Assembly (NCBI GenBank): GCA_965230125.1 | Contig: OZ245938.1 | Coordinates: forward strand, 1,613,535 to 1,677,534 | Direction: 5' to 3' | Length of the DNA: 64,000 nucleotides | DNA from: an uncultured Pseudohongiella sp. | GTDB taxonomy: Bacteria; Pseudomonadota; Gammaproteobacteria; Pseudomonadales; Pseudohongiellaceae | Part shown: positions 1 to 39,480 of the stretch, in pieces | How the letters are laid out: every line of letters starts with the position of its first letter | How positions within the stretch are numbered: position 1 is the stretch's first letter | Notes under the pieces: generated by a model | What the model was told of the DNA's origin: nothing | Seen by the model: only the letters and a program-made list of their open reading frames with translations | Databases searched by the model: none | Made by a program: the position numbers and the translations under genes

Positions 1-302
1 ATTTTGCCAACAGTCAGTATCTGGAAGAGCTGATCTTCAAGCTGGTGGCGAAGAAACCCAACCTTGAGCACGTCATCCTGATGTGCACGGCGGTCAACGA
101 GATTGATTTGAGCGCCCTGGATTCGCTGGAAAACATTAACAACACCCTCAAGGAACTGGACATCAAACTGCATTTGTCTGAGGTGAAAGGGCCAATCATG
201 GACCGGCTGGGCAGTACCGGGTTTTTCAAAACCCTGACTGGCAACAACTACCTGAGCCACAATCAGGCGGTGGAAGACTTGCGGGTCAAGGACCCGGTTT
301 AG
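1..302 (+). CDS. SulP-family anion transporter, C-terminal STAS domain (5' end outside window)
   Basis: Frame 3 is open from the window edge to TAG 300-302. The translation FANSQYLEELIFKLVAKKPNLEHVILMCTAVNEIDLSALDSLENINNTLKELDIKLHLSEVKGPIMDRL has the STAS pattern found at SulP C-termini. Confidence 0.75.
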   Translation, partial: FANSQYLEELIFKLVAKKPNLEHVILMCTAVNEIDLSALDSLENINNTLKELDIKLHLSEVKGPIMDRLGSTGFFKTLTGNNYLSHNQAVEDLRVKDPV

Positions 303-333
303 GTCGCGTGAATTGACCGGATAGCTGGTTCGC

Positions 334-1287
334 CTAGGCCGCCCTGGCGATAACCGCTATGTAGCCGAGGTAGCCAGCCAGCAGCAGCGCCCCTTCTCCG
401 CGACTCAGAGTGAAGCCGGTTCGGGCGATGGGTAACAGCACCAGAGCGAAAACCAGCATGGTGCCGAAGTCCACCAGTGAAAACTGTTCACCGGAAATAC
501 TGCCGACCACAGCGGTAACGCCAAGCACGCAAAGAATGTTGAACGTGTTGGAGCCCACCACGTTGCCAATGGCGATATCAGACTGGCGCCGAAAAGCAGC
601 GAGCACCGATGTGGCCAGTTCGGGAATGCTGGTGCCGACCGCCACCAGGGTCAGACCGATGATAGCTTCGCTGATTCCAAGAATCCGCGCCAGAATCACT
701 GCGTTATCCACGAACAGCTGACTGCCGTAAATCAGCAATCCCAGACCAAGCACAACAAATATCACATTGATGAGGGTGCGACCGGGTTGTTGCGGGGTGA
801 TTGCCGACGGCAGATCGAGCGTTTCGCCAGCATCGAATTCACCGCGGCTCTGCCTAAAGCTTAAATACAGATAGGCGAGCAGCCCGATGATCAGCAGGAA
901 ACCGTCCATTCGGTCGACCTCGCCATCCAGCAACAGCAGTCCCAGCAACACCGAGCAGGCAATGACGATGGGAATCTGCTGGCGCACCAGGCTGCGCTCC
1001 ACATGGATCGGCTGGATCATTGCGGTAATCCCCAGGATCAGCCCGATGTTGGCAATATTGGAACCGATCACATTACCCAGCGCCAGAGCACTGAGGTTGT
1101 TGATTGTGGCCTCGACGCTGACCGCCAGTTCCGGGGCGCTGGTGCCGAAAGCAACAATGGTCAGGCCCACCGCCAGCGGTGTGACGCCAAGACGCAGCGC
1201 CAGGCGGCTGGCGCCACCAACGAGCAACTCAGCCCCTGCTCCGAGAAGCAGAAAACCGATCAGTATTAAACCGATGGATGTCAGCAT
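334..1287 (-). CDS. CaCA-family cation/Ca2+ antiporter (YrbG-like)
   Basis: Two alpha-repeat motifs, GTSAPELAVS and GTSIPELATS, lie in a polytopic membrane protein. Start set at ATG 1287 (MLTSIGLILIG...) because the upstream 47 codons of the ORF look non-coding. Confidence 0.85.
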   Translation of the reverse strand: MLTSIGLILIGFLLLGAGAELLVGGASRLALRLGVTPLAVGLTIVAFGTSAPELAVSVEATINNLSALALGNVIGSNIANIGLILGITAMIQPIHVERSLVRQQIPIVIACSVLLGLLLLDGEVDRMDGFLLIIGLLAYLYLSFRQSRGEFDAGETLDLPSAITPQQPGRTLINVIFVVLGLGLLIYGSQLFVDNAVILARILGISEAIIGLTLVAVGTSIPELATSVLAAFRRQSDIAIGNVVGSNTFNILCVLGVTAVVGSISGEQFSLVDFGTMLVFALVLLPIARTGFTLSRGEGALLLAGYLGYIAVIARAA

Positions 1288-1375
1288 GAATAGTCCGCGA
1301 AATGCAGTGGCCCGCACCTGAAAGTGCGTCGGTAACCACTCGCCTGATGTGTGTAAAAGAACGTAAAAATGGTGC

Positions 1376-3409
1376 TCAGGAGGTAACAGCTTCCGGTGAA
1401 TTGCTGGCTGCCATACGTTTCTGAACAATTATGATGGTTGCCAGGATTCCGACACCGATCAAGTGGAAATACAGGGGAAACGGCGTCCACATCAGCAGCC
1501 CGGCGCTGAGCAGCAGTCCCGCAGCGATGGGGATGTTGATCCGCGTCTCAAGATGCCACTGTAACAGCCCTGACAAGGCATACAATCCCATGCTCGCCCA
1601 GAAAAACACTTCCAGACGCTCCGGCCAGGTTCCGGAGATTAGCGGCGAATAGGCAAACAGCACCGGGATGAGATACAGGCCTTTGGCGACCTTCCAGCTG
1701 GTCAGTCCGGTGGCCATGGCCCGGGTTCCGGCGATGCCGGCCGCGGCAAATGAGGCCAGGCACACCGGTGGCGTGACGTTGCTGTCCTGGGATAACCAGA
1801 AAATCACCAGATGGGCACTGAGCAGCATGCCGGTCAGCAGCTGCGGGTCGAGCATTTCCTGGCGGATAAGCTGTTTCATGGCCAGCGGCATTTGCTCCAG
1901 CGCCGCGGCCGTGCCGCCTTCAAACAAACTCAGGGTCGCTGCCACGTTCTGCGGCAGGCTGCCCTCGGAAATGGCCATCTGAATCGACTGCAGCAGCGCG
2001 GCCTGACTGATCAGGTCGAAGATCAGCGGCGCCGACAGCGTCGCCAGTACGATATAGGACGCGGTCACTGGCAAGCCCATACCGAGAACCAGGGAAGCCA
2101 GGGCCACCAGAATCAGCGTGATCAGCAGACTGCCATCGGCCCATTCGACGATCATCAGGGAGAACGCATTACCGACGCCAGTAGTGGTGACCACATTAAT
2201 GATGATACCGACGGCAACCAGGAGCAGGGCGGTGGATACCATGGTCTGCACGCCCTCCACCACGGCGTCGAAGATGTCCGGCAGTCGCATCGGATTTTTG
2301 GACAGCCAGGAAGCCACTATCACACTGAGGATGGCGAAGGCTGCAGACGTGGTCGGTGTGCGCCCGACGACCAGAAAACTCACCAGCACGGTCATGGGGA
2401 TAATAAAATGCCAGCCTTCCTTGAGAACCGTACTTACCTTTTCAGTCTCACCGATGGCGGTGGGCCGCAGTCCCAGGCGCTTGGCTTCAATACGCACGAA
2501 AAAGGACACGGTCAGGAAATAAAGTATCGCCGGCAGCGTTGAGGCCGCGATAATGGTTAGATAGGAGATCTGCGTGTAGCTGGCCAGGACAAAGGCACCT
2601 GCCCCCATTACCGGTGGCATCAGCGCGCCGCCGGTGGAGGCAGCCGCTACCACGCCTGCGGAAAACTGACCTTCAAAGCCTGACTTCTTCATCATCGGAA
2701 TGGTAATGACACCGGTGGACACGGTATTGGCCACTGCCGAACCGGATACCGAACCCATCAGGCCAGAGCCGATCACCGCCACCAGTCCGGCACCGCCAGT
2801 GAAGCGGCCGGCCAGGCAATGAGCCAGGCGAACAATAAAATCGCCGGCACCCGAGCGCAGCAGAAATGATCCAAAGATAATGAACATGAACACGAAGGTG
2901 GCGCTGATATTCGCGGTCAGGCCGAACATGCCTTCGCTGGTGAAGAAAGACCGGTACAGTACTGTTTCCAGACTCAGGCCAGGAAACGAAAACACGCCCG
3001 GAATATAGCGTCCCAGAAACAGGATGTAGGATAGGCTTACCAGGATCAGTATGGGCATGAACCAACCGGTGGTGCGCCGGGTGAATTCAATAGCCAGACC
3101 AATCGCGACCAGGGAGAACAGGTAGTCGCTGAAGATGTATTCAGTTTCCCGCGCGTAAAGCGCGTTCTCAAACAGAATCAGGTAGACGGAGGTGAGCACT
3201 GCAATCAGCGCCAGGCCGACATTGATCCAGTATTTAGGTGAGCGTGTGGAGACGTCGTCGGACTCATTGGCAATCAGCGCGCACAGGGCACAGAAGCCGC
3301 CAAAGTGGATAGCCGACAGCCACAGCTCGGAGATGCTGGCGAAGACGTTGCAGTAAATATGAAACAGCGCAAACAGGAACGCTGCCCATCGCAAATAGAT
3401 TGATCGCAT
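1376..3409 (-). CDS. TRAP transporter, fused permease subunit (TAXI-type system)
   Basis: A 677-aa highly hydrophobic protein with many TM segments. Its start shares one nucleotide with the stop of the upstream TAXI binding-protein gene (TGATG at 3407-3411). Confidence 0.85.
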   Translation of the reverse strand: MRSIYLRWAAFLFALFHIYCNVFASISELWLSAIHFGGFCALCALIANESDDVSTRSPKYWINVGLALIAVLTSVYLILFENALYARETEYIFSDYLFSLVAIGLAIEFTRRTTGWFMPILILVSLSYILFLGRYIPGVFSFPGLSLETVLYRSFFTSEGMFGLTANISATFVFMFIIFGSFLLRSGAGDFIVRLAHCLAGRFTGGAGLVAVIGSGLMGSVSGSAVANTVSTGVITIPMMKKSGFEGQFSAGVVAAASTGGALMPPVMGAGAFVLASYTQISYLTIIAASTLPAILYFLTVSFFVRIEAKRLGLRPTAIGETEKVSTVLKEGWHFIIPMTVLVSFLVVGRTPTTSAAFAILSVIVASWLSKNPMRLPDIFDAVVEGVQTMVSTALLLVAVGIIINVVTTTGVGNAFSLMIVEWADGSLLITLILVALASLVLGMGLPVTASYIVLATLSAPLIFDLISQAALLQSIQMAISEGSLPQNVAATLSLFEGGTAAALEQMPLAMKQLIRQEMLDPQLLTGMLLSAHLVIFWLSQDSNVTPPVCLASFAAAGIAGTRAMATGLTSWKVAKGLYLIPVLFAYSPLISGTWPERLEVFFWASMGLYALSGLLQWHLETRINIPIAAGLLLSAGLLMWTPFPLYFHLIGVGILATIIIVQKRMAASNSPEAVTS

Positions 3410-4551
3410 CAGGGAGCGCTCGTTGCGTCGCTGGCCGGGTCATCAGCTGATCCACCCGCCGGTTCTGCAACCAAAGTTGAGGGTTCTTCCATGATCAGGC
3501 GGTCGGGGATTTCCAGTCCGACCTCCCGGTAGTAACGCAGGGCTCCGGCATGCAATGGTGCACCCAGTCCGGCGACAGCGATTTCCAGACGCATGTCACG
3601 GGTAGCGCCGTGTATTTCCTGCAGGGTAGCCAGATTCTCCCATATAACCTTGGTGATGCTGTACACCACGGATTCGGGAATATCGGCGCGCGTCACCAGG
3701 ACATTGGGTGAGGCCACAGTGCGAATCAGCTCATCCTGGTTGGGGTAGGTATCCGGGGGAAATTCGTACCAGTCCCACAGCGGGTAGCGGGAATTGATGC
3801 GGTCCAGGGATTCCTGGGTCCAGTTGAGGATAGTCATACGGTCGCCCAATAGCGCATAGGCCTGGGTAATCGAACTGACCGGCGCACCCGCGGGAATGTT
3901 CATGCCGACGATGTTGCCGTCCTGGATAGCGCTGGTGGTCGGACCGTAGCCCATGTAGGCAAGATTGAATTTTTCCTGGTAGTTGATACCCAGGGTATCG
4001 AGGATAAAGCGACCAGTTTGTTCGGCTCCGGAGTTGCGCGCTCCCAGCACGTAGCGCTCGCCATCGAGATTGGCAAGATCGTCCATGGTCCCGGTTTCGG
4101 TCAGCCGGGTCAGCAGCACGAAGTGCTCAACGTTTTGCCACATCGCAGCAACACTGCGCATGTGGGTTTGCGGATTGCTGACCGGGCCTTCGCCGGCCCA
4201 GGACCAGGCGCCGAACGGTCCCTGCAACAGTGCAAACTGCGCCTGGTTATCGCGCAGCAGTTTGACGTTTTCCAGCGAGCCGGCTGAGCTGATGGCGGTC
4301 AGGGAAATCCCTTCGGAATCGGCGAGCTGGGCGTGGGCTATGGTAGCCAGGGCGACGCCTACCGGGTAATAGGTGCCTCCGGTAGTCGCCGTGGTCAGCA
4401 CGTAGGGCCGGGCCCGATTCAACTGGTCGCCGCAGCTGCTAACCAGCAGGGCCAGCAGCAGGGTAGCAAGGGCAGCAAGCATTCTGCGCGTGGCAGGCAC
4501 GAGGGGCTTGGTGAGGGTAATGGGCATGGAGAATCCGCTAAAGCTGGACAT
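3409..4551 (-). CDS. TAXI-family TRAP transporter solute-binding protein
   Basis: Lipobox LLVSSCG followed by TTATTGGTYYPVGVALA, which is characteristic of TAXI receptors. Start is uncertain: ATG 4551, TTG 4560 or internal Met codons. Confidence 0.8.
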   Translation of the reverse strand: MSSFSGFSMPITLTKPLVPATRRMLAALATLLLALLVSSCGDQLNRARPYVLTTATTGGTYYPVGVALATIAHAQLADSEGISLTAISSAGSLENVKLLRDNQAQFALLQGPFGAWSWAGEGPVSNPQTHMRSVAAMWQNVEHFVLLTRLTETGTMDDLANLDGERYVLGARNSGAEQTGRFILDTLGINYQEKFNLAYMGYGPTTSAIQDGNIVGMNIPAGAPVSSITQAYALLGDRMTILNWTQESLDRINSRYPLWDWYEFPPDTYPNQDELIRTVASPNVLVTRADIPESVVYSITKVIWENLATLQEIHGATRDMRLEIAVAGLGAPLHAGALRYYREVGLEIPDRLIMEEPSTLVAEPAGGSADDPASDATSAP

Positions 4552-4929
4552 AGGTTGCAAGTCAGGGCGTGTCGCCGGCAGTGCTTGTGTTTGTTATTAG
4601 CCCGGCAGACGGAAGCGTCTGGAAACGAGTCCGGGAGTGGTTCTTTATAGCTCGAATTGTTCCTGCCCGGAACCTGGGCCCGGGTTGGGTATTGCTCCTG
4701 GTCAGCTTCGGGCGGCGGGTTGCAAGTGATTGAATTGGGGCGGAAAAACCGCAGCAACCCAAGCGTCGAAAGCTGATCGATGAAAGCATATTTGTCGACA
4801 AAGAACAATCACCTCCAGGCTGGGGGCCGGGTGTATTGGTCTGGGGTCTGGGGCTCGGATCCGGGTCTCGAATCAGAGTCCTGGAGCAGGCTGTTATTCC
4901 TGACGGTTGCTCAGCATGAGGCTGGCGAG

Positions 4930-5172
4930 CTACTTGTTGCGATCAGCACCGAGAGTATCCCGGGCATTACCAGACAGGGATTTTTCTTCGTCCAGTTTGT
5001 TGATCAGCACACCGGCCCCGCCCAGCACTGATATACCGGTGGTGACACCCACGATCAGGGCGATGCGCAGAAACATGTTGATCTCAATGCCGGTCATTCG
5101 ATAGCCCACCTCGGCGATCACATTGACCAGAACGAACGCGATGCCAAAGGTAACCCAGACAATTTTTTTCAT
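4930..5172 (-). CDS. small hypothetical membrane protein (80 aa)
   Basis: ATG 5172 gives MKKIVWVTFGIAFVLVNVIAEV... with two hydrophobic helices. Same strand as, and 47 bp downstream of, the FG-GAP gene. No recognisable family. Confidence 0.35.
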   Translation of the reverse strand: MKKIVWVTFGIAFVLVNVIAEVGYRMTGIEINMFLRIALIVGVTTGISVLGGAGVLINKLDEEKSLSGNARDTLGADRNK

Positions 5173-5218
5173 AGCGATCTCAGTGGCGCGAGTGAAGAAG
5201 GCGGATGATGACCAGAAC

Positions 5219-6895
5219 TCACTTCGAGAGTAACAGCAATCCCCGAATGGCACTACCGTCAAAATCCTGAAACACAAACAGGTCATCGACGTTATCGCTG
5301 TTCAGCCGGACGGGAATAATGTCGCCGGTGATCAGGCTGCTGTCGAGGTTGATCTGCTGGTCTGCCGAGCGATCCTGAACCGCCGTAAGCTGCGCCGTGC
5401 CGCTGACATCTACATTGTCGATAATCTTCCGAATATCGATTTCGTAGTCGTCACGATCACGGCTGTAGCCCAGTGAGCCAAGGAAATTGTCCTGATCGGC
5501 TTCGGGCCTGACGCTGTCGAAAAAAACATCCACCCGATCTTCCATTAGTACCAGCAAATCCTGGATTTCAGCATCCCCGTCAAGCGACGCGGGTCGGTGC
5601 GGCGGGATGTCCCCGGCCCGCAGCCCATCCGCGGCGCTGTTCAAATCCTGATAGGCAGTGGCCAGCCGCACTACCGAAGGAAAACGCAGGTTAACTGTAA
5701 CCCGCCGCGTGGGTCGGCGCGCAAAACGCTCACCGTCATTGGGATAGATGAAGGCTTCGATAGCGATATTGCCCGACAAGGCCAGCCAGACGAACAGATC
5801 GCCCACGGATATGGTTTCCACCCGCCACAGCCACAGGTCTTTCAGTCCATCTTCATTTTCATCGTAGAGAAACGTGCTCAGAACATTGCCGCCGGAACGC
5901 AATACCTGTCGCGGCTGCTCAAGGTCCATGCCGGTAGGGGTGCCGCCAAAGAATGACACCTTACCCCCTTCCCGTAATAGCAGATCCTCGATGCCGTCAT
6001 TGTCGACGTCTTCCAGGATCTCCTCGTGGGTTAGCGCCAGCACGCCGGTCAGGTTGGAAAAATCCAGATTATCGACGTCGAATTCACCAAGGCGCTCTTC
6101 AATCTCGGCGATATCCAGACTATAGCTGGGCACGCTCGGGAAATAGTTGTTGTCGCTATTGGCCAAAAAGACATTCAGCGACTCATCAGTACGCGAAATC
6201 AGGTCGTTACTGCCGTCACTGTTGACATCACGCAGTTCCAGGCGCGGAATGCGTACTGCCTGGCCAGCGGAGCGGTTGAAGCGATTATTGCTCAGGCTGG
6301 TGCGCAGCTGCATTTCTGACTGCACTCTCAGCGGTGCCTGATAGTCGCCGCTATTGCTGCGAATCAGAATATGCAGCACGCCAGCGCCAGGTACCACCAG
6401 GTCTTCCAGGCCATCGCCGTTAACGTCCTGGGAAAAACGCAGGCGGTTGACGCCGCGCATCAGGAATCCGGGCAGGTTCACGGCCAGGGTAACCGGCTCC
6501 TGAAGCTGCTGCCCGGCTATCGGCCAGGCCCGGGCCTCGCGCCCGTCGAGCAGGGTAATGATGGCCGCACTGCCGTCAGTGCTGTAGCCCGAACTGATAT
6601 CCCAGCCAACAGCTGGCGATTCCAGTGGGATATCCACAAAGCCCGACTCAAAATTGAAGCCGCTGTCATTGCTAGCTGGATTATCCCCGCCGGTGCGGTG
6701 GAGATACACTCGCAGGCGATTGTCGATGACGGTAATGAGATCCCGAAAACCATCAGCATTTACATCGGCGACTACCAATGACTCGGTGTCAGCTGGGAGC
6801 TCGAAACGTTGCTGCCGGTAGTCCGCGGCAATGGCCGCAGCGGAGAACAGCAACAGACCGGCGAGCAGCCAGGAATTTTCCTTGCATCGCCTCAT
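5219..6895 (-). CDS. secreted FG-GAP/VCBS repeat (integrin-like beta-propeller) protein
   Basis: Signal peptide (LLLFSAAAIAADY). Repeated Ca-binding-like loops DVNADGFRD, DVNGDGLED, DVNSDGSND, DVDNDGIED, ENEDGLKD. ATGA start/stop overlap with the upstream paralog at 6892-6895. Confidence 0.7.
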   Translation of the reverse strand: MRRCKENSWLLAGLLLFSAAAIAADYRQQRFELPADTESLVVADVNADGFRDLITVIDNRLRVYLHRTGGDNPASNDSGFNFESGFVDIPLESPAVGWDISSGYSTDGSAAIITLLDGREARAWPIAGQQLQEPVTLAVNLPGFLMRGVNRLRFSQDVNGDGLEDLVVPGAGVLHILIRSNSGDYQAPLRVQSEMQLRTSLSNNRFNRSAGQAVRIPRLELRDVNSDGSNDLISRTDESLNVFLANSDNNYFPSVPSYSLDIAEIEERLGEFDVDNLDFSNLTGVLALTHEEILEDVDNDGIEDLLLREGGKVSFFGGTPTGMDLEQPRQVLRSGGNVLSTFLYDENEDGLKDLWLWRVETISVGDLFVWLALSGNIAIEAFIYPNDGERFARRPTRRVTVNLRFPSVVRLATAYQDLNSAADGLRAGDIPPHRPASLDGDAEIQDLLVLMEDRVDVFFDSVRPEADQDNFLGSLGYSRDRDDYEIDIRKIIDNVDVSGTAQLTAVQDRSADQQINLDSSLITGDIIPVRLNSDNVDDLFVFQDFDGSAIRGLLLLSK

Positions 6896-8487
6896 GGTCG
6901 CGCCACCAGAAAAGTTGTCGTGGTGCCATGACGCAGCATCAGGTCCGGGCGGTCGTCGTCATTCAGCGCCAGGACTTCGAACTCAAATACACTGCGCGGC
7001 GAGACGTACTCCCAGAATGGTTCGGTGGCGATTTGCAGATTCTCATCTATGCGGCGTGCTGCCAGAGTCCCGTTCTCGGTGATATAAAGTGCGTCGTTAT
7101 GCCCATCGCCATCGACATCGTAGCGCAGTGACATTTGCTCAGCTAAACCACGGACGTTGGCCGCGGAAAAACTTTCTTCCAGGCGCGAGTCGGGACGGCG
7201 ACTGAACAGCTCATCGGTGCCCGGCGAATTGCCGCGATACAGCAGTTGAATGCGATTAATGCTGGCGTTGCGGATCGCGTCCACCACCGGGATTGTGTAG
7301 TAGCTGGCATTTAAGGCTGGCGTACCGTCCGCTGCGGCGATAATGTCCACCCGCAGGTCGTAGCCGGAAAAGCGCAGCACCTGATTCGGTGCGTCCAGAC
7401 GGAACTGCCCGTCCTGGTTGCGATACAGACGTACCGTCCAGTCGCTGCCATCGTCGCTGACCCGCAGCAGGTCATCCAGACCATCGCCATCCAGGTCGGT
7501 CAGCTGCAAGTCCCCGCTGGAGTCAAAGGACTGCGACCAGTCGGGATCGCCACTGAAGCCGCTGTCCGCATTCTGGAAATGCACGTGCATTTGCCCCAGC
7601 CCGTTGTCGCCAGCATTAATATAAGTGATATCCGCCAGTCCGTCGGCATTCAGTTGCGCCAGGGTCGCGGTCGGCATCCACTGCTCGTCATCCAGCAGGG
7701 CAGCAGCTTCGTCCTGGTTCGGCCATTGCTCGACAAAACCCTGGAAAGGCGTTGGAGTTTCCACGCGCAGCGCAATCTGCACCCCGCTTTCTGCATTGAT
7801 GGCAAGCTGTCCTTCAAGGTCACCGCGCTGGCTACGCCGCTGAATCGGGGTGAGGTCGGCGTTAACTGTAGAAAACACCTGCTGCCGCTGGAACTGCTCT
7901 TCGCCGCTGCCGAGAAAAACGCCATACTCATCATCACCGGGCACCAGCATGTCGATCTGTCCATCGTTGTTAATATCCAGTAGATGATTTACAAAACGGA
8001 CGCTTTCCAGGTCGGGGATGGTAGCCAGGTAGTCCCATTGTGTCAGCAGCTTAAGGTTGTCGGTATATCCTTCGCGGGTAGTGCTGAGACTGAAAATACC
8101 GCTATTGGCGAACAGAACCAGTTCCTCCCCGGGGTCTGAGCGCAGGTCAGCGAAACCCACGGCGATAATCTCGGTTTTGATTTCCACCCGCTGCGGGTCC
8201 GGATTGAAATTGCCGTTTGCTTGCTGGTGATAGATGTGCAGTTCGCGACCCAGCCCGGGTTGATAGCCCGACGAGACTATATCCAGGCGTCCATCACCAT
8301 TCATGTCTTCCAGGCGCAGTGGCGCCCAGTTGTCCGCGCGGCGCAGTTCAAAAGACGTGTAGTTTTCCTGAGCAGCTACGGGCAGACAGCAACCGAGCAT
8401 CAGGCTGGCAATCAGCCAGGGCTTGGCGCTGCGTGTTGCGCTCAGGAGTGCGTTGTTAATCGAGCCGAGAGCTGCGCTGTGTGTCAT
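6892..8487 (-). CDS. secreted FG-GAP/VCBS repeat protein (paralog of 5219-6895)
   Basis: Signal peptide (LMLGCCLPVAAQE). Loops DMNGDGRLD, DINNDGQID, LNADGLAD, DLDGDGLDD, DVDGDGHND. Confidence 0.7.
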   Translation of the reverse strand: MTHSAALGSINNALLSATRSAKPWLIASLMLGCCLPVAAQENYTSFELRRADNWAPLRLEDMNGDGRLDIVSSGYQPGLGRELHIYHQQANGNFNPDPQRVEIKTEIIAVGFADLRSDPGEELVLFANSGIFSLSTTREGYTDNLKLLTQWDYLATIPDLESVRFVNHLLDINNDGQIDMLVPGDDEYGVFLGSGEEQFQRQQVFSTVNADLTPIQRRSQRGDLEGQLAINAESGVQIALRVETPTPFQGFVEQWPNQDEAAALLDDEQWMPTATLAQLNADGLADITYINAGDNGLGQMHVHFQNADSGFSGDPDWSQSFDSSGDLQLTDLDGDGLDDLLRVSDDGSDWTVRLYRNQDGQFRLDAPNQVLRFSGYDLRVDIIAAADGTPALNASYYTIPVVDAIRNASINRIQLLYRGNSPGTDELFSRRPDSRLEESFSAANVRGLAEQMSLRYDVDGDGHNDALYITENGTLAARRIDENLQIATEPFWEYVSPRSVFEFEVLALNDDDRPDLMLRHGTTTTFLVARP

Positions 8488-8497
8488 TGCTCTACCA

Positions 8498-9442
8498 TCA
8501 TTCTTCTACCAGTTCACCGACATCGCTGCTGAAATTGATAAGTCCGAGAATGCTGTGGGAGCGTTCTTCTTCCACCTGGCGGAAACTGTAAACCGAGAAC
8601 AGCCACAAATCGAGCAGGGAGAAGCTACGGCTTTCCGGGCTCAACGCGCTTTCGTAGCGCAGCAGCGGCCAGAAAGAAACGCGGCTGATGCGGCGCCCGG
8701 GGTCCCACAGAGACACGGTAACCTGGTCGATAGATTGATCGCGATACACAGTGAAGCTGACCTCGCTGCCCAGCTCGTGGTCACGATTCAGTCGGGTAAC
8801 CAGGTCCTGCGCAGAATTCAGGTAGCTGCCATTCAGTGCCAGTATCAGGTCGCCCACATTAATACCGGCTCCCGGCAATGGGCTTTCCGGGAAGAATCCG
8901 GTGACCTCGGCGGCAGCAACGGACCCTCGTGACGCAATGTCAACCAGCGTGGTGGTGAAGCCAGCCCGGGTGGCCAGTGGATCAACTCGATACAGCTCGA
9001 TGGGCGCTGGATTTTCAATCACCTGTCTGGCAATAACCGTGGCCTCGAAACCAGTAGTGCCGCGGCGCAGGGTGAAGCTGAACTGGTTGCTGTCACCAGT
9101 CTGCTGCAGGGCAAGGACGGCGTCGGGCTGATTGATCGCCAGGTCGTTGATCCGCAAAATGACGTCGCCCACCTGGATGCCAGCCGCCGCGGCGGGACCG
9201 CCGGGCACTACCTGACGCACTACTACTCCAGGCAGTACCTCAACATTGAACAGGGAATCGCTCTCGTTGCGGCTGACATCAAGACCAAAGTCCAGCCTGG
9301 CGTCTGCTGCGGATCCGGTATTGCGCAGGGTCACCTGTTCCGGTGACAGGGTAATTTCCGGCACCAGTACAGCCGGGGCGTAGCTGACACAACCGGCCAG
9401 CCCGCAGTTAGCGACGATCATTATTGCGCGGAACAGCTTCAT
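8498..9442 (-). CDS. lipoprotein with two PDZ domains
   Basis: Lipobox GLAGC. Two PDZ-like segments: GGPAAAAGIQVGDVILRINDLAI and PLPGAGINVGDLILALNGSYL. ATGA overlap with the ABC-2 permease gene at 9439-9442. Confidence 0.7.
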   Translation of the reverse strand: MKLFRAIMIVANCGLAGCVSYAPAVLVPEITLSPEQVTLRNTGSAADARLDFGLDVSRNESDSLFNVEVLPGVVVRQVVPGGPAAAAGIQVGDVILRINDLAINQPDAVLALQQTGDSNQFSFTLRRGTTGFEATVIARQVIENPAPIELYRVDPLATRAGFTTTLVDIASRGSVAAAEVTGFFPESPLPGAGINVGDLILALNGSYLNSAQDLVTRLNRDHELGSEVSFTVYRDQSIDQVTVSLWDPGRRISRVSFWPLLRYESALSPESRSFSLLDLWLFSVYSFRQVEEERSHSILGLINFSSDVGELVEE

Positions 9443-10296
9443 AATTTTCTCAGTCGCACGATTAGCAGCGCCAGGACAACGAATAGTGTCATTGCCGGCC
9501 AGGGTACCCAGGTATTCAGTTGCAGCAGGCGCTCGTCCACCAGGACATCCGAGTAACCGCGCACCAGCCTGCCGACATCCTGCAGATAGGACTGGTCGAG
9601 CAGTGACGGCTGAAAGCGGGCATACAGATAATTGGCGCTACTGCCCAGCATGCCCTTGAAGATATCCATGGCCAGGGTGATGCCCAGCGCGCCGGTCACT
9701 GCGCTGGTGGCCGAATTGGCGACCACCGAAACCAGAACCCCCAGGGCAATTGCCGCTGGCAGTGGCAGCAGTGCCAGACGCAGGCCCAGAGCGATCTCCT
9801 CGCGAATTTCCTGTTCGCCAATCAGTTCGAAACCGTCTTCAACCACGGGCCCGAACTCCCAGAGACTGCCGCTCAGGAAGTAGCAAACCGCTGTTAGTAA
9901 AACAATAGCAAGCACTGCCAGGAGATGGAAATAGATCAGTTTTGCCACTACCAGCGCAGGACGACTGACCCGGCGTATCAACAGGTGGCGCAAGGCGCCG
10001 GTATCGCGATCAAAGCTGAAGCTGTAAGCGGAAAGAGCGACCAGCAGCAGTCCCAGCAAGGTTAGGCCGGTGCTCAGGCCGTCGACAAAATAACCCCAGG
10101 CGTTACTGGTCAATGCCTGGTCAAAGCTATTTTGTCCTAACAAATTATCTCTGGCTTCGGTGCCGGCAGCGGTCAGCCGGGTCAGAAAATATTGCAGTGC
10201 GACCAGCAGCGCAGGTGTGACTATCACCAGCTTGCTGCCCAGAGTGTGCAGGCCGACATGAAGCTCTGAGCGCAGTGCCACCAGCACCCCGTTCAT
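9439..10296 (-). CDS. ABC-2 type transporter permease
   Basis: A 285-aa protein with about six TM helices, a large first loop and ABC-2-like topology. ATGA overlap with the ATPase gene at 10293-10296. Confidence 0.75.
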   Translation of the reverse strand: MNGVLVALRSELHVGLHTLGSKLVIVTPALLVALQYFLTRLTAAGTEARDNLLGQNSFDQALTSNAWGYFVDGLSTGLTLLGLLLVALSAYSFSFDRDTGALRHLLIRRVSRPALVVAKLIYFHLLAVLAIVLLTAVCYFLSGSLWEFGPVVEDGFELIGEQEIREEIALGLRLALLPLPAAIALGVLVSVVANSATSAVTGALGITLAMDIFKGMLGSSANYLYARFQPSLLDQSYLQDVGRLVRGYSDVLVDERLLQLNTWVPWPAMTLFVVLALLIVRLRKL

Positions 10297-11219
10297 GGCG
10301 CTGGCTCCCGGGTCAATTCGCGGAACAGGGTGTCCAGCGACGGTCGCTCCACCAATAGCTCGGCAACGGCGACGTCCCGGGCGACCAGTTCCTTGTTCAG
10401 GGCTGCCGAATCGACATTGTCAGCGCTCAGGTGCAAATAGCCACCGGCGTCCCGCTCACCGATTTGGATGTCGGGCATGGTGGCCAGGACCTGCCGGGCC
10501 AGCTCTTCATTGTTGGCGCGCAGCAGGATGCGGGTGCCGGAATCAGCCAGCAGTTCCGTCACTGCGGCACTGGTCGGAATACTGCCTCGATGCAGTACCG
10601 CGATGTGGGTGCAGATTTGTTCCAGGTAGGGTAGCTGGTGTGAAGACAGCAGAAACGACGTACGGTGCTGCTGATTGAGATCCTGGATCAGGTTCAGCAC
10701 GTCGTCCACGCCGCCAGCATCCAGACCATTGAATGGTTCGTCAAGGATGATCAGTTCCGGATTGCCTATCAGTGCGTGGGCAATGGCGGCTCGGCGTTTG
10801 TTGCCCAGCGACAGGTGTTTGATGCGGAAGTTGCGGAACCGGCTGATCGCCAGCAAATCCTCTACTTCCGCCGGGCGACGCTGAGGATTGGCGCACAGCA
10901 GTTCGGCCTGGGTGAGACATTGGCGCACAGTCAGGTTTGGGTTGAGACTGGGCGTATCAAATATACCCACCACGCGACCGGCACCTTGGTAGAGCTGATC
11001 AGGCGCCAGATCCAACACGTGGATCTCGCCGCCATCGAAACGCTGAAGCCCGAGAATGCATTCCAGGGTGGTGGTTTTGCCGGAACCATTAAGCCCCACC
11101 AGACCGTGTATGGCTCCGCGTTTCACCTGCAGATTCAGGCCGTCAACAACGGTGTGCTGACCATAGCGTTTGCTCAGGCCAGAAACAGCGAGAATACTGG
11201 CGTCGTCACTGGCGTTCAT
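10293..11219 (-). CDS. ABC transporter ATP-binding protein
   Basis: Walker A GLNGSGKTT, signature LSLGNKRR, Walker B LIILDEP, plus a C-terminal extension of about 80 aa. Confidence 0.9.
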   Translation of the reverse strand: MNASDDASILAVSGLSKRYGQHTVVDGLNLQVKRGAIHGLVGLNGSGKTTTLECILGLQRFDGGEIHVLDLAPDQLYQGAGRVVGIFDTPSLNPNLTVRQCLTQAELLCANPQRRPAEVEDLLAISRFRNFRIKHLSLGNKRRAAIAHALIGNPELIILDEPFNGLDAGGVDDVLNLIQDLNQQHRTSFLLSSHQLPYLEQICTHIAVLHRGSIPTSAAVTELLADSGTRILLRANNEELARQVLATMPDIQIGERDAGGYLHLSADNVDSAALNKELVARDVAVAELLVERPSLDTLFRELTREPAP

Positions 11220-11283
11220 CGCAGGCCCTAATGTCTGCCCCGGTATGAGGTGCTTGACTGGTGGTACTTAATGGACAGTGCAA

Positions 11284-14280
11284 TCAGTCCACGAACAGCG
11301 CGTCGGTACTGAGTTGCTCCACTTCGCCGAACTGGGCCAGGTCTTCCATATTGATGATGGACAGGTCGCCAAGCACCGAAATCAGCTTTGGCTTGCCCTG
11401 CACATGCTCGCGCTGGAACTGGACCAGGTCATCAAGACTGGCGGTTTGCAGCTGCGCAAAACGCTCACGCCGCGGGTCGCCCTCAAGGCCCAGTTCTTCC
11501 CAGCGCCGCACCGCGCCTATCACTTCCCGGAAACTCAGTTTGGAAGTCCGATAGCGATTCACCAGTGAGTTCACGGTTTCATCGAAGCGTTCACTGGAAG
11601 CGGGCATGTTGTCGATCAGGTCCACGAAAGCGGACAGGGCATCGACCGTCTTGTCGGTCTGTGTGCCGATCACACCCAGTACCAGGTTTTGCGCATTTTC
11701 GCGACTGCCCTGGGAGTAGGCTGCGGAGGCCGAATAGGCCAGCGCCCGTGCTTCACGCAGTTCCTGAAACACCACGCTGGACATGCCGCTGCCGAAGTAG
11801 CTGGTGTATAGCTGCGCATCCACGCTATCGGCTTCGCTGAACACGCCGTCACCAAACTCGATGCGCACCTGGGCCTGGGCAGTCTGCTGGTCTACCACCT
11901 TCACTTCGTTTTCCAGGGTTTCCCGCACGCGGCGATAGCGGTAAGGCGGCGTCTGGGCGAGCTCGTCCGCTACCGGGTAATGTTCGCGCAGAATACTCAC
12001 CACCTGTTCCAGCGGCAGGGAGCCGGTGTAGGCCAGGGTGTGCTCGTAGTTGAGTAGTTGCCCCGGCAAGGCCAGCAAGTCGTTGAGCTGTGCGGCCATG
12101 ATTTCATCGCTGGTGAGGGCTTCCAGCATCGGAGATTCTTCGCCATAGCGATTGTACAAAAATAGCGCGCGGGCGATGGCTGTGGGTGAAACTTTCTGGT
12201 CCTCGCGGGATTTCAGGGTGATCGCCTTGAGCTGCTCCAGGGTGCTGGCTTCGGCACTGGGGCTGGTGAGCAGAGCCATCATCAAGTCCAGGGATTCCTC
12301 GAACTGGTCATCAAGACCGCTCAGGGACATGGCCGAGCTGTTCTCGCCTGCGCCGAAGCGGAACTCGCTGCCCATGCGATACCATTCTTTCTGCAGTTCC
12401 TCGTTGCTCAGGCTGTCGGTGCCGGCTACATCCAGCAGGCCGCTGGCCATGCCCAGGTAATCATTTACCTCGGTGCCGACATCCACGCCAATGGAGAAGC
12501 TGAACAGGTCATTGAGGGGATTGGGTGCATAATAAAGCTGTACGCCCTCGGCGAACTCCACCACCCGGTAGTCCTCATCGGCTACCACATAGTCCGGCTC
12601 GATCGGCTGGTAGTCCATGGCCAGCACCCGGGCAGCGAAGTCTGACTGCCGCGACGGATCAATGGTGACCGGATCGATTTGTGGCTTTTCCACCAGCGGA
12701 ATACTGTTCTGCGCATTTTCGCGATATACCGCGACATAGTCATCACCGAAATATTTGTTGGCCACCGCCACCACATCTTGCTTGGTGATTTGCTCCAGGC
12801 GACTGATTTCGCCGACGTAGTGGTCCCATTCGGCACCTTCGATAAACGACTGACGCATGCTGGACACCCGGGCGGTGTTGAATTCCAGGCTGGCTTTTTC
12901 GTTCTTCTCAAAATCGTTGATGATGGCTGGGATAATCCAGTCCTCAAACTCACCGGCCTTGATCAGTTCCAACTGTTCCAGCAGCAATTGCTCCACTTCG
13001 GCCAGGGTCTGGTCCTGGCGTGGTACGCCGTACAGATTCTGGGTGCCGTAGTCATTGAGAAACAGTGGTGACGACCCGGCTTCCGCCACTCGCTGTTGCT
13101 GATTCAGGTTCAGGTTGATCAGCCCGGCTGTGCGATTGTCGAGAATCATGTCCACCAGGATCAGTGCTTCCTTGTCGGGACTACCGTTGGGTGCGGTGCG
13201 AAATGCCAGGCTGACCTGCTCCTGACCGGGATACTGAACGGTTTCCCGCTCGGCGCCACTTAATGCCGGTTCGCTCCAGGGACCCACTTCCGGCACTGGA
13301 CCGCGCTCCCACTGGTTGAAGTGTTCGGCAATCAGCTCGATGGTGTCCTCGATAGCAAAATCACCGCTGAGGAAAATGCCCATGTTGTTGGGCACGTAAT
13401 AGGTATCAAAATAATCGCGGATGTATACCAGTGAGGGATTCTTCAGATCTTCAACCGTTCCGATGGTGGGCTGCTGGCCGTAGGGGTGTACCTTGTACAG
13501 CAGTTCATCGACGGCGGTGGCAATGACGCGACCGGGGTTGTCCAGGGTGCGGTTCTTTTCCTCATAGACCGTTTCCAGTTCGGTGTGGAACAGGCGAAAC
13601 ACCGGGTTAATGAAGCGGTCGGATTCGATCAGTGCCCACTGCTCCAGGCGGTTTGACGGCAAGCTGACCTTGTATACGGTTTCCTCGTGCCAGGTGTGGG
13701 CGTTCAGGCCGGATGCGCCCATGCTGTTGTACAGCTTGTCGATCTCGTTGGGGATGGCGTATTGGGCTGCTTGCTGCGCCTCCTGGTTGATCTCGGCATA
13801 AATTTCGGCGCGGCGCTGCGGATCGGTTTCCTCAAAGTGCTGCTCATAGAGCTCAACAATACGTTCCAGGTGAGGGCGCTCTGCCTCGTAGTTCAATGTG
13901 CCCAGGTTGCGATTGCCCTTGAACAGCAGGTGCTCCAGATAGTGGGCCAGTCCGGTGGCATCGGCGGGGTCGTGTTTGCTGCCAGCGCGTATCGCGATTT
14001 CTGCGTAAAAGCGCGGCTCTTCGTGATTCTCGGTCAGGTAGACCCGCAGTCCGTTGTCCAGTTCATAGATATGGGCATCCAGCGGATCCTCGGGATTGGG
14101 GGTGTTAATTCGCTGGTAACCCGGTGACGCCGGGGCCTCGCTACTCGCTGCGTTCTGCGCTTCGCCGGAGCCGGTGGGCTGCTCACTACAAGCCAGCAGG
14201 GTCGGCAGCAACAGGGCGGTAGCGGCGATTTTCAGCCAGCTGCTGAAGCGGATAGTCAGGTAGGTACTGCTTGTCATCAT
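11284..14280 (-). CDS. M16 (insulinase/pitrilysin) family zinc peptidase, lipoprotein, about 998 aa
   Basis: HxxEH zinc motif in HYLEHLLFKG. Lipobox LLACS after MMTSSTYLTIRFSSWLKIAATALLLPT. Start set at ATG 14280, which has AGGAG 8 nt upstream. The ORF extends to 14409 but that part looks non-coding. Confidence 0.85.
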   Translation of the reverse strand: MMTSSTYLTIRFSSWLKIAATALLLPTLLACSEQPTGSGEAQNAASSEAPASPGYQRINTPNPEDPLDAHIYELDNGLRVYLTENHEEPRFYAEIAIRAGSKHDPADATGLAHYLEHLLFKGNRNLGTLNYEAERPHLERIVELYEQHFEETDPQRRAEIYAEINQEAQQAAQYAIPNEIDKLYNSMGASGLNAHTWHEETVYKVSLPSNRLEQWALIESDRFINPVFRLFHTELETVYEEKNRTLDNPGRVIATAVDELLYKVHPYGQQPTIGTVEDLKNPSLVYIRDYFDTYYVPNNMGIFLSGDFAIEDTIELIAEHFNQWERGPVPEVGPWSEPALSGAERETVQYPGQEQVSLAFRTAPNGSPDKEALILVDMILDNRTAGLINLNLNQQQRVAEAGSSPLFLNDYGTQNLYGVPRQDQTLAEVEQLLLEQLELIKAGEFEDWIIPAIINDFEKNEKASLEFNTARVSSMRQSFIEGAEWDHYVGEISRLEQITKQDVVAVANKYFGDDYVAVYRENAQNSIPLVEKPQIDPVTIDPSRQSDFAARVLAMDYQPIEPDYVVADEDYRVVEFAEGVQLYYAPNPLNDLFSFSIGVDVGTEVNDYLGMASGLLDVAGTDSLSNEELQKEWYRMGSEFRFGAGENSSAMSLSGLDDQFEESLDLMMALLTSPSAEASTLEQLKAITLKSREDQKVSPTAIARALFLYNRYGEESPMLEALTSDEIMAAQLNDLLALPGQLLNYEHTLAYTGSLPLEQVVSILREHYPVADELAQTPPYRYRRVRETLENEVKVVDQQTAQAQVRIEFGDGVFSEADSVDAQLYTSYFGSGMSSVVFQELREARALAYSASAAYSQGSRENAQNLVLGVIGTQTDKTVDALSAFVDLIDNMPASSERFDETVNSLVNRYRTSKLSFREVIGAVRRWEELGLEGDPRRERFAQLQTASLDDLVQFQREHVQGKPKLISVLGDLSIINMEDLAQFGEVEQLSTDALFVD

Positions 14281-14309
14281 AAAACTCCTGCGGGACGAGC
14301 GGCGTGCGA

Positions 14310-14331
14310 ACGTGCCGGATACGTGCCGGAT
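14310..14331. repeat. perfect tandem direct repeat ACGTGCCGGAT x2
   Basis: Read directly: ACGTGCCGGATACGTGCCGGAT. It lies 30-50 bp upstream of the M16 peptidase ATG, inside the divergent promoter region. Confidence 0.6.
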
Positions 14332-14626
14332 TAACAGTGGAGACCGCGAAGGGGCTGAAAACCTTACGAAAGGTCCGGCTGGTGCGGGCGTCGCGACCGG
14401 CATTGGCAATGGATTGCAACAATTGCTGCTATGGTAAGTAAAAAAAGCGCAAAATCATAATGATATCCCCCGTGCACAGGTATCGTTTGATCGCTAACTG
14501 GCGCATGATTTGCTGCTCGGGCGCGTATAATCCAGCATTCAACGGTACCCCGGCCAAGCTTTTGGTGAGCCGCAAGCTGGCGGGAAGCAGCGCAATAATA
14601 GCAAGAGACTCAAAAAGAGACCCCGT

Positions 14627-16312
14627 GTGAAATATCGTGCCTACACTATATTCCTGTCCCTGGCGATGCTCGGTGCCTGCACCAGCGCCGACTACAAGGA
14701 CAGCGCGGACCGGGAATCCTATGGCGTCATTGCCGACAAGGCAGCCGCAGTCCCGGGCACTACCGATCAGGTGATTATTGACCAGATGCCGGAGGTTGAT
14801 CTCAGTGCTTTCCCGGTAAATAACGACTCGTTTGCCTTTCTGGATGCCGTCGCCGACAGTGAGGTCGGGGCCCACATTATCAGCCTCGAAGCGGCACTTG
14901 ATCTGGCTTTCAAGCACAGTCGTGAATACCAGACCCAAAAAGAGCGGCTTTATCTTGAAGCGCTGGCCCTGACTCTGGATCGGTACCGCTACGCGCCGAT
15001 TTTTTCCGCCGTTGGTGGTAGTGAGATCCAGTGGCAGGCGGAAGACCAGTTCGTTTCGGACATGCAGACCCTCACCGGGATGCGGGCGGTAAGTATGACC
15101 GAGACCGTAACTTCCGGCACCAGCCTCGGCGGGCGGATCTTGCTGAAAAGCGGCGGTGCGGTGGCCCTGAACCTGACCAACAATCTGACGCGCTTTCTCA
15201 CCGGCAACAGCAGTGAAATCGCCAGCAGCGCGCTGATTGGTTCGTTTACGCAGCCGCTGCTGCGGGATTTCGGGCGTGCCGTGGAAACCGAGACCTTGCT
15301 GCAGGCGGAGCGGGACTTGCTCTATCAACTACGTGACTTCACCCGATTCCGCAAGGAACTGGCGGTACGGGTTGCCTCGCAGTACTACTCGGTATTGTTG
15401 AATCGGGAAACCGCGGTCAACAATTTTGCTGGCCTCAACGCCAACAACCTGTCCCTGGAGCGGGAACAGGCATTCCAGCAGGAAGGCCTGCGTACCTTGC
15501 TGCAGGTCGGCCGTCTCGAGCAATCCGCCCTGCAGGCCGATTTGCGCTGGACCGCATCGATTGCCCGCTACAAGCGCGCCCTGGACAATTTCAAGCTGCT
15601 GCTGGGCCTGGACGCCAATCTGAACATTGTGCTGGATGACAATGAAATGATGCTGATTTCTGAAACCGGGATGGACCGGCCCGAGATTGACCTGGATCAG
15701 GCCGTGGAGATGGCGGTGCGCACCCGTCTGGACCTGTACACTGAACTGGACCAGGTGCAGGACGCCGCACGTAAAATCGATGTGGCCGCCAATGTCCTGT
15801 TGCCAGCCCTGGATTTCAGTTTCGTGGCGGACGTACCGGATTCACCAAGCAATACCCTGGGTGAGCTGGACTTTGAAAATGCGGTATACACCGCTGGCCT
15901 CAATCTGGAGCTGCCGCTGGATACCAAGGCGCAACGCAATGACTACCGTCGCGCACTGATTAACTATGAAGTCGCGACACGCAACTATTTGCTGGCTCAG
16001 GACACCATTACACTGGACGTGATTGACGCCTGGCGACGAATGAACCAGTTTCGCGAAAGCTATGAAATCAGCCTGGCCAGCGTCCAGATCAATGAACGCC
16101 GGGTGGAAGAAGCTCAATTGCGGGCCGAATTAGGGCTAGGGGATATCCAGGATACAGTGGATTCCCAGAACGACCTGACGGAAGCGCAAACAGAACTGGT
16201 CAGTTCAATAGTCGATCATAATATAGCCAAGCTGGAATTCTGGCGCGACGTAGGTCTGCTTTACGTCGACGATTCCGGCCAGTGGGAGGAAGGCGTCGAT
16301 GAGCCGCAATAG
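14627..16312 (+). CDS. TolC-family outer membrane efflux protein
   Basis: GTG start. Signal plus lipobox (LAMLGAC). Two internally repeated coiled-coil/beta halves typical of outer membrane factors. Overlaps the downstream adaptor gene by 14 nt. Confidence 0.8.
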   Translation: MKYRAYTIFLSLAMLGACTSADYKDSADRESYGVIADKAAAVPGTTDQVIIDQMPEVDLSAFPVNNDSFAFLDAVADSEVGAHIISLEAALDLAFKHSREYQTQKERLYLEALALTLDRYRYAPIFSAVGGSEIQWQAEDQFVSDMQTLTGMRAVSMTETVTSGTSLGGRILLKSGGAVALNLTNNLTRFLTGNSSEIASSALIGSFTQPLLRDFGRAVETETLLQAERDLLYQLRDFTRFRKELAVRVASQYYSVLLNRETAVNNFAGLNANNLSLEREQAFQQEGLRTLLQVGRLEQSALQADLRWTASIARYKRALDNFKLLLGLDANLNIVLDDNEMMLISETGMDRPEIDLDQAVEMAVRTRLDLYTELDQVQDAARKIDVAANVLLPALDFSFVADVPDSPSNTLGELDFENAVYTAGLNLELPLDTKAQRNDYRRALINYEVATRNYLLAQDTITLDVIDAWRRMNQFRESYEISLASVQINERRVEEAQLRAELGLGDIQDTVDSQNDLTEAQTELVSSIVDHNIAKLEFWRDVGLLYVDDSGQWEEGVDEPQ

Positions 16313-24435: not shown

Positions 24436-24462
24436 GATACTAGCTGAGCTGCTCCATAAACG

Positions 24463-24480
24463 TTGTTGATACCAATTGAT
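24463..24480. repeat. 18-bp motif TTGTTGATACCAATTGAT, copy 1
   Basis: Exact 18-mer also present at 49069-49086. It contains the direct repeat TTGATAC-CAA-TTGATAC. Lies in the flhF-fleN spacer, 28-45 bp upstream of the fleN ATG. Confidence 0.5.
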
Positions 24481-24502
24481 ACAGGGGCGAAGTTGTTCTG
24501 CT

Positions 24503-25765: not shown

Positions 25766-25768
25766 AGC

Positions 25769-38683: not shown

Positions 38684-38696
38684 CAGGTAGCCGGCC

Positions 38697-39452: not shown

Positions 39453-39480
39453 TAACAGCGGTCACCAAGGAGACTGATTG

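Follow-up and report, generated by a model that had tools for sequence, protein, structure and literature searches.

Seven consecutive minus-strand open reading frames (ORFs) occupy positions 4930-14280 of a 64,000-nucleotide stretch of DNA from an uncultured Pseudohongiella sp. (the window, whose positions serve as coordinates unless a locus is named). Five of them are the conserved unit, here called the module, which is a predicted translationally coupled operon, and encode the ATPase and the permease of an ATP-binding cassette (ABC) pair, a lipoprotein with two PDZ domains, and two FG-GAP β-propellers (A and B). We hold this five-gene anatomy with high confidence. An earlier note, made from the sequence of the window, had taken all seven genes for one unit. 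That extent did not stand, since only the four junctions within the five-gene core are tight and since the genes for an M16 peptidase and for an 80-residue protein stay behind outside one family. The M16 peptidase is a Pseudohongiellaceae-specific neighbor and at most a locally recruited helper, and the 80-residue protein is the product of a clade-specific, loosely attached downstream gene. The module is best classed as an undescribed NosFY-type ABC-2 system with an unprecedented partner set and is not a member of NosDFYL. The five genes of the module and the two genes that flank it are as follows.

10293-11219, minus strand: ABC ATPase, 308 residues, NosF-like, with a C-terminal regulatory extension (Pfam and NosF alignment)
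9439-10296, minus strand: ABC-2 (type V) permease, 285 residues, six transmembrane helices, NosY-like fold (Pfam, AlphaFold2 model and Foldseek)
8498-9442, minus strand: two-PDZ lipoprotein, 314 residues, LAGC lipobox with Cys18 (Pfam and AlphaFold2 model)
6892-8487, minus strand: FG-GAP β-propeller A, 531 residues, signal-peptide-like N terminus (Pfam)
5219-6895, minus strand: FG-GAP β-propeller B, 558 residues, signal peptide ending AIA-AD (Pfam)
11284-14280, minus strand: M16 zinc-peptidase lipoprotein, 998 residues counted from MMTSS (gene call and Pfam)
4930-5172, minus strand: small protein, 80 residues, two hydrophobic helices (gene call, versus 118 residues for the longest ORF)

Direct reading of the window located ATGA start/stop overlaps between the ATPase and permease genes (10293-10296), between the permease and PDZ genes (9439-9442), and between the genes of propellers A and B (6892-6895), and a gap of 10 nucleotides (nt) between the PDZ gene and the propeller A gene (8488-8497), all of them where the earlier note had placed them. 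In 68 to 75 related loci, for which start codons were picked heuristically, the median junctions from the ATPase gene through the permease, PDZ and propeller A genes to the propeller B gene were -4, +3, +7, and -4 nt. In the same loci, overlaps were never seen between the M16 and ATPase genes (median gap of 75 nt) or between the propeller B gene and the small gene (median gap of 44 nt). A consensus scan for promoters and terminators over positions 4300-14800 returned sites no commoner than in shuffled sequence and says nothing on operon boundaries. The signal peptides or lipoboxes that had been reported for the non-cytoplasmic products are visible by eye (LLAC in the M16 protein and LAGC in the PDZ protein, with signal-peptide-like N termini on the two propellers), and searches with hidden Markov models bore out the domain assignments, since Peptidase_M16 with M16_C, ABC_tran, ABC2_membrane_2, two PDZ domains and FG-GAP all scored above the Pfam gathering threshold.

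When 1.84 billion cluster representatives were searched exhaustively with a profile, 97 clusters were retrieved at an E value of ≤1e-30, plus a long weaker tail. The tail consisted of proteins of ~300 residues matched over nearly the whole PDZ-lipoprotein profile, and its named members came from metagenome-assembled genomes (MAGs) of Planctomycetota and from Aurantivibrio plasticivorans. The latter organism, NBRC 116494, is a cultured species of the Cellvibrionaceae (Gammaproteobacteria) and carries the module (locus L093), with WP_460231620.1 as its PDZ protein. Nine retrieved contexts contain the ATPase, ABC-2 permease and PDZ-lipoprotein genes in that order (L084, L086, L088, L089, L090, L091, L093, L095, and L096), followed by both propeller genes in eight cases, the ninth context (L088) stopping just inside the propeller A gene. 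A metagenome scan queried with the propeller B alignment added six full five-gene modules (L097, L099, L109, L112, L122, and L124), among which the Pseudohongiellaceae-like L124 is the sole one with an M16 gene (73% identity). Altogether, 19 loci were obtained beyond the 80-locus family scan described below. The ABC pair and the PDZ gene are present in 15 of these (L124 counted in), 14 of which contain the whole module. The other four (L092, L106, L119, and L123) comprise the trio of PDZ, propeller A and propeller B genes without ABC genes, and three of them (L106, L119, and L123) extend for over 5 kb upstream of the trio with no ABC genes in that stretch. Window proteins are ~23 to 41% identical to their counterparts in the distant loci, where compared, and overlaps of 1 to 4 nt recur in Planctomycetota, in Aurantivibrio and in other distant loci.

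No M16 gene was detected in loci outside the Pseudohongiellaceae-type clade, even with 3 to 4 kb available upstream of the ATPase gene, and no homolog of the 80-residue protein was found in distant loci outside that clade. Because the M16 gene is missing from these loci, including those of another gammaproteobacterial family, we removed it from the system. Gene order is kept well beyond close relatives for five genes and not for the other two, so that the claim of the earlier note withstands its own gene-order check for the module only. Since the trio occurs without adjacent ABC genes, it appears to be the functional heart of the system, with the ABC pair as its usual energizer. A sixth conserved gene was considered and rejected, as the module in Planctomycetota is followed by small ORFs that share no homology with the 80-residue protein of the window. 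A profile built from the distant PDZ lipoproteins gained nothing, the protein search being flooded by HtrA PDZ candidates. In L084 (positions 12566-14233 of a Planctomycetota MAG), propeller B was called at 417 residues and its alignment decays after about residue 330; an ORF of 125 residues that follows probably belongs to the same gene, split by a frameshift or an assembly error.

For the Pseudohongiellaceae-type clade, the PDZ-lipoprotein alignment was run against GTDB, one genome being taken for each species, and yielded 80 loci, all from MAGs, labeled mostly as Pseudohongiella, Pseudohongiellaceae, Pseudomonadales or Gammaproteobacteria, with a few under other labels. Identical or near-identical copies of the window locus were found on Pseudohongiella-type MAG contigs. 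According to a tblastn census, in which the denominators are the loci with enough flanking sequence, the order M16-ATPase-permease-PDZ-A-B-(small) is kept in 80/80 loci, the ATPase and permease genes are present in 75/75, both propeller genes in 69/69, and the 80-residue gene in 61/66. An unrelated receptor gene of the TAXI-TRAP type lies downstream in 51/56 loci, and a divergent operon of the TolC-like/membrane fusion protein/MacB type lies upstream in 38/56. Because unrelated flanking genes are equally syntenic, synteny at the level of the family cannot define the functional unit.

The ATPase and the permease are encoded by separate adjacent genes and form an ABC-2 (type V) pair according to Pfam, the 4-nt overlap, and the fold. 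The ATPase (ABC_tran, E value of 1.5e-25) contains Walker A (GLNGSGKTT at residue 42), signature (LSLGNKRR at residue 136), and Walker B (LIILDEP at residue 156, including E161) motifs. Its best full-length, single-domain match among solved proteins is NosF (7o0y_B; residues 10-300 against 4-292; E value of 5.4e-32), with LptB behind; ABCA-type domains also score highly. The permease matches PF12679 (ABC2_membrane_2; 45.7 bits versus a cutoff of 27.2) and has no match in the PDB at the sequence level, profile search included. An AlphaFold2 model of the permease was computed from an alignment of database homologs, with a predicted local distance difference test score (pLDDT) of 80 and a predicted template modeling (TM) score of 0.81. 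The top eight PDB matches of this model in Foldseek are all NosY chains (from NosDFY, NosDFYL and NosDFY-NosZ; TM scores of 0.55 to 0.69; probability of 1.00), after which come PmtCD (TM scores of ~0.55 to 0.63) and then ABCG transporters. The likeness of the ABC pair to NosFYL-type modules, which had been suggested from gene order, is thus borne out by NosF as the best full-length match and NosY chains as the best fold matches. The best-conserved segments of the permease are two predicted periplasmic ones (residues 146-160 and 226-264), at 3.56 and 3.30 bits versus 2.88 overall.

None of the module proteins reached the curated NCBIfam cutoff of the lantibiotic-protection, GldAFG, PedABC or NodIJ equivalogs. 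The scores of the ATPase are 2- to 9-fold below the cutoffs of such models, its top match being the lantibiotic-protection family TIGR03740 (131 bits versus 310), with TIGR03522 (Gld; 116 versus 403) and TIGR03864 (PQQ_ABC_ATP; 116 versus 302) among the others, and the sole match of the permease is to PedC (TIGR03861; 20.6 versus 241). In PADLOC, the ATPase alone gave matches, to generic ABC/AAA models, and the other six proteins of the window gave none. In the JGI annotation, homologs of the permease are labeled "multi-copper enzyme maturation permease", a name taken from COG.

The lipoprotein matches PDZ families alone in Pfam (PDZ_2, PDZ_6, and PDZ), with no protease domain. NCBIfam models of the Do family cover its PDZ regions only (67 bits versus 416), and its homologs carry generic database names ("PDZ domain-containing protein" and "serine protease Do"). 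The lipidated Cys18 and the loop glycine of PDZ1 (G72) do not vary among 91 sequences drawn from both clades, and, apart from the lipidated cysteine, no Cys/His/Met metal motif is conserved. In the AlphaFold2 model (pLDDT of 92), the PDZ1-PDZ2 tandem superposes in Foldseek on the tandems of DegQ and DegP (E value of 3e-11) and on that of RseP. An extra β-domain of ~11 strands is assembled in the model from the N terminus, the linker between the PDZ domains, and the last 65 residues (strands at residues 18-23, 49-60, 152-169, and 250-306). This domain had no match among the top Foldseek hits, and a profile of the C-terminal 70 residues had none in PDB sequences or Pfam. The C-terminal tail G-E-L-x-E (window 8498-8515) is kept in most members of both clades, and model confidence is lowest there (pLDDT of 61); the tail could be a self-ligand or a partner ligand for the PDZ groove. 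Acidic C termini are atypical as PDZ ligands. The C termini of the propellers were also considered as PDZ ligands and discarded, since A ends in LVAxP and B in LLLS-x in the gammaproteobacterial clade only, the tails from Planctomycetota being basic. A link to flagella was likewise abandoned. The PDZ tandem matches a chain of the periplasmic flagellar-motor scaffold of Campylobacter jejuni (9hmf_D; Foldseek rank 28; E value of 8e-8), which we treated as generic PDZ similarity, and no distant locus has flagellar neighbors.

Both propellers score above the FG-GAP_3 cutoff of 26.9 bits (70.3 for A and 49.8 for B), and B also matches FG-GAP. Loops of the DxDxDGxxD type number four in propeller A and five in propeller B, and the loops DVNGDGLED and DLDGDGLDD mentioned in the earlier note are both among the propeller sequences. 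The orthologs contain three to six DxDxDG loops each, spread along the full length of the proteins. In FG-GAP propellers, such loops are normally structural. Profile matches in the PDB are limited to generic FG-GAP propellers (the Psathyrella lectin PVL, the Tc-toxin component TcB, and integrins). Propeller A matches the product of the first propeller gene of the distant loci with E values of 1e-34 to 3e-9, versus 3.7e-7 or weaker for cross-matches, and propeller B matches the product of the second with E values of 1e-55 to 1e-27, versus 3.5e-5 or weaker; the margin is narrowest in L091, where propeller A favors the first gene over the best cross-match by only ~100-fold. Each propeller is thus orthologous to the gene in its own position in the distant loci (A in the first, B in the second), so that the A/B duplication is old and the two gene positions are fixed. 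The propellers also gave subthreshold NCBIfam matches to XAC2610-type immunity proteins, and precomputed tables contain faint PliI-type inhibitor matches for propeller A of L086 and L095.

The closest characterized system is NosDFYL, in which the ABC-2 pair NosFY anchors the periplasmic protein NosD, which works with the lipoprotein chaperone NosL (PMC8457098; PDB titles). The module resembles it in an ATPase that aligns end to end with NosF, in a six-helix ABC-2 permease of family PF12679 whose closest folds are NosY chains, in an operon that also encodes a lipoprotein and predicted soluble periplasmic partners, and in an ATPase-permease-lipoprotein order like that of nosF-nosY-nosL. Unlike NosDFYL, the module combines its ABC pair with a two-PDZ lipoprotein and two FG-GAP propellers, and its permease is like NosY at the level of the fold alone, not of the sequence. 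No match to the NosD β-helix or to the NosL family was obtained for any module protein in Pfam or NCBIfam, in agreement with the earlier remark that the accessory proteins differ, and nosZ is missing from the 10 kb around the module both in the window and in the distant loci. Exporters of the PmtCD and LanFEG types share the type V fold, and the top NCBIfam match of the ATPase is to the lantibiotic-protection subfamily, but the module scores far under the family cutoffs, lacks a precursor peptide and a LanI-type immunity lipoprotein, and has PDZ and propeller partners without a counterpart in those systems. The PDZ tandem is common to the module lipoprotein and to the HtrA proteases (DegP and DegQ) and RseP, from which the module lipoprotein differs by the lack of a trypsin-like or metalloprotease domain, by its lipid anchor, and by the extra β-domain. 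PedA1A2BC (TIGR03861, TIGR03864, and TIGR03866), which belongs to pyrroloquinoline quinone (PQQ)-dependent alcohol dehydrogenase clusters and likewise joins an ABC-2 pair to a seven-bladed propeller in the periplasm, is set apart by propellers of the YVTN type, as opposed to FG-GAP in the module, by the absence of linked PQQ-dehydrogenase genes near the module, and by scores far under the cutoff. A full-text literature search found no description of an ABC-2 pair combined with a PDZ lipoprotein and FG-GAP propellers. Together with the lack of a curated equivalog or PADLOC defense model for the combination, this upholds the earlier statement that the system has no characterized counterpart.

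By analogy with NosDFYL, the five products may constitute an ATP-driven periplasmic machine for the handover or extraction of an envelope ligand, a reading that we favor and to which we give a probability of roughly 0.35 to 0.45. Because tight coupling implies stoichiometric co-production, the products could assemble into one envelope complex. The ABC-2 dimer in the inner membrane would serve mainly as an ATP-driven conformational motor for its partners in the periplasm. The propeller pair would take the place of NosD by docking on the permease dimer where its periplasmic face is conserved, and the PDZ lipoprotein would take that of NosL, presenting or receiving the ligand. ATP hydrolysis would then switch the assembly between capture and release, the ligand being handed on or pulled from the membrane by the periplasmic partners. 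PDZ tandems of the HtrA and RseP types recognize protein C termini or exposed β-strands, and for this reason our best guess for the cargo is a protein or a peptide, a glycan being possible given the lectin-like propellers. As proposed in the earlier note, a machine for envelope processing or assembly would be the most plausible reading, in preference to a transporter of nutrients. Several points weigh against a NosDFYL-style machine. It leans on analogy with a single characterized system, whose NosD and NosL are absent here, and that NosFY itself acts as a motor and not as a pore is our own reading, beyond PMC8457098 and the PDB titles. The periplasmic segments of the permease exceed its overall conservation only modestly, and their predicted topology comes from the model. 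PmtCD and ABCG exporters come next among the structural neighbors, which keeps real substrate extrusion in play, and neighborhoods outside the module are inconsistent across the distant loci and give no hint of the cargo.

Extrusion in the manner of a true type V exporter (PmtCD, LanFEG, or Wzm-Wzt) would have the ABC-2 pair expel an amphipathic peptide, a lipid-linked molecule or a polymer, a prospect that we consider unlikely without being negligible. In such an exporter, the PDZ lipoprotein and the propellers might serve as periplasmic acceptors or shields, for instance for self-protection against membrane-active peptides, a role that we regard as similarly doubtful. The fold search, in which PmtCD (the phenol-soluble-modulin exporter) and ABCG come straight after NosY, is consistent with export, as are the lantibiotic-protection family as the top match of the ATPase, in spite of a score well under its cutoff, the capacity of PDZ domains to bind peptides, in a tandem that is DegP/DegQ-like here, and the weak immunity- and inhibitor-type matches of the propellers. 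However, no precursor-peptide, biosynthetic or polysaccharide genes are consistently linked to the module in the distant loci, the trio does without ABC genes in four loci, the family-specific scores are all well under the cutoffs, and PADLOC matches are limited to generic ATPase similarity. Insertion of a metal or cofactor in the strict Nos sense, with propellers and lipoprotein delivering copper, calcium or a lanthanide to a periplasmic enzyme, is improbable; PedA1A2BC would be a parallel to such a system. It would fit the Nos-like ABC pair, PedC as the only NCBIfam match of the permease, the many acidic, calcium-type loops of the propellers, and the Sco1, PCuAC and multicopper-oxidase-like genes that adjoin the module in L088. 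The PedC and PQQ_ABC_ATP scores nevertheless fall far under their cutoffs, no gene for a metalloenzyme or a chaperone recurs beside the module in the distant loci, DxDxDG loops are established as structural elements, and the lipoprotein conserves no metal motif beyond its lipidated cysteine.

The same low likelihood applies to a seven-gene machine centered on the M16 protein, which would process a substrate that the ABC-2 pair, the PDZ lipoprotein and the propellers export or assemble. Consistent with the earlier description of an M16 lipoprotein of ~1,000 residues with an intact HxxEH motif, the protein has 998 residues, and its intact zinc motif is HYLEH (residues 113-117), accompanied by the NAHTWHEETVY region at residue 193. 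It is of the fused, four-domain M16B type (Peptidase_M16 and M16_C in Pfam), with the Sphingomonas M16B heterodimer, PqqL and MPP-beta as solved relatives; its ORF extends to a TTG codon at 14409, whereas gene callers begin at MMTSS. In favor of its participation, the M16 gene is adjacent to the ATPase gene on the same strand in 65/65 family loci, with a gap of 64 nt in the window, both zinc motif and lipobox are present, and M16 peptidases adjoin ABC-2 pairs in some peptide-maturation clusters (albCD and albEF of subtilosin). Distribution contradicts the claim that this lipoprotein is part of the system, since no locus outside the Pseudohongiellaceae-type clade contains the gene, Aurantivibrio of the same class included. 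In addition, the M16 gene never overlaps the ATPase gene, its product is under a different constraint (median identity within the family of 72% versus 55 to 62% for the module proteins), and the unrelated flanks are just as syntenic. The protease-associated import system PqqL/YddAB resembles the window arrangement in having a large, fused, four-domain M16 protein, here predicted to be periplasmic, beside an ABC transporter. It differs in that the window has an ABC-2 half-transporter pair and in that M16 is not kept with the module outside one family. No TonB-dependent receptor gene was found in the first 20.5 kb of the window (1-20.5 kb) or among the called genes of locus L001, so that the window arrangement is not a PqqL/YddAB system.

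Several neighbors of the module deserve mention in their own right. Two divergent ORFs of ~405 to 426 residues lie upstream of the trio in L092 and L119, and one is listed in L123; those of L092 are HlyD-like and α/α-toroid-like (SQHop_cyclase_C/TED). Downstream of the trio, a convergent gene in L092, L119, and L123 encodes a protein of ~275 to 285 residues with a similar hydrophobic N terminus. These recurring neighbors of the trio-only loci (L092, 7461-9922 and 15245-16102; L119, 2764-5252 and 9589-10413; L123, 4106-5323 and 9664-10497) may be alternative partners of the trio. In L088, positions 1-5795, on the strand opposite to the module and beside it, encode Sco1/SenC, a PCuAC-like (LpqE-like) protein, a MauG-type peroxidase, and a multicopper-oxidase-like protein of 1,635 residues, an arrangement that is of interest beside a Nos-like ABC pair and was seen in this one locus. 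In Aurantivibrio (L093, 14590-16981), genes for an S11 D-Ala-D-Ala carboxypeptidase and a U32 peptidase are located ~260 nt past the module. A peptidase gene therefore adjoins the module again in a second gammaproteobacterial family, but it belongs to another peptidase family, and coincidence is possible.

In the window, positions 1376-4560 (minus strand), directly downstream of the module, encode a TAXI-family TRAP receptor (NMT1_3) and a fused DctM-type permease, and these TAXI/DctM genes are syntenic in the 51/56 related loci at ~80% identity. On the other side, an operon on the plus strand (14627-20519), divergent from the M16 gene and separated from it by an intergenic region of ~350 nt, encodes a TolC-like outer membrane efflux protein (561 residues), an HlyD-type adaptor (710 residues, which is unusually long), a MacB-type ATPase (250 residues), and a MacB/FtsX permease (469 residues). 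Flagellar genes are located at 23635-27886, 35765-47860, and 60806-62605 and encode FlhA, an FlhF-like GTPase, a MinD/FlhG-like ATPase, an FlgL-like protein, FliD, and FliF, together with a hook protein FlgE of 972 residues and a hook-junction protein FlgK of 974 residues, both about twice the usual size.

Synteny at the family level alone would have drawn the M16 peptidase into the system, and it was the comparison across phyla that took it out. Uncharacterized operons are common, and cross-phylum conservation, tight coupling, a fixed paralog pair and a cultured host set this module apart as a tractable test. Genomes abound in ABC-2 pairs of the NosY/COG1277 type, which are routinely named "multi-copper enzyme maturation permease" without evidence. 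Among them, NosDFYL alone illustrates, on our reading, how such a pair could drive partners in the periplasm. The module may be, although we would not bet on it, a class of periplasmic machine not recognized before and another case of the NosDFY principle, with an ABC-2 "transporter" that moves no substrate and drives the conformational cycling of periplasmic partners, here so that a protein or peptide of the envelope is handed over or extracted. If this were true, a new pathway of envelope quality control or assembly would be common to marine Gammaproteobacteria and Planctomycetota, and a structurally unrelated second partner set would test whether mechanotransduction is general in the NosY/COG1277 subfamily. 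The presence of the module in the cultured A. plasticivorans NBRC 116494 opens the question to experiment. In abundant marine heterotrophs, such a system would amount to a new function of the envelope.

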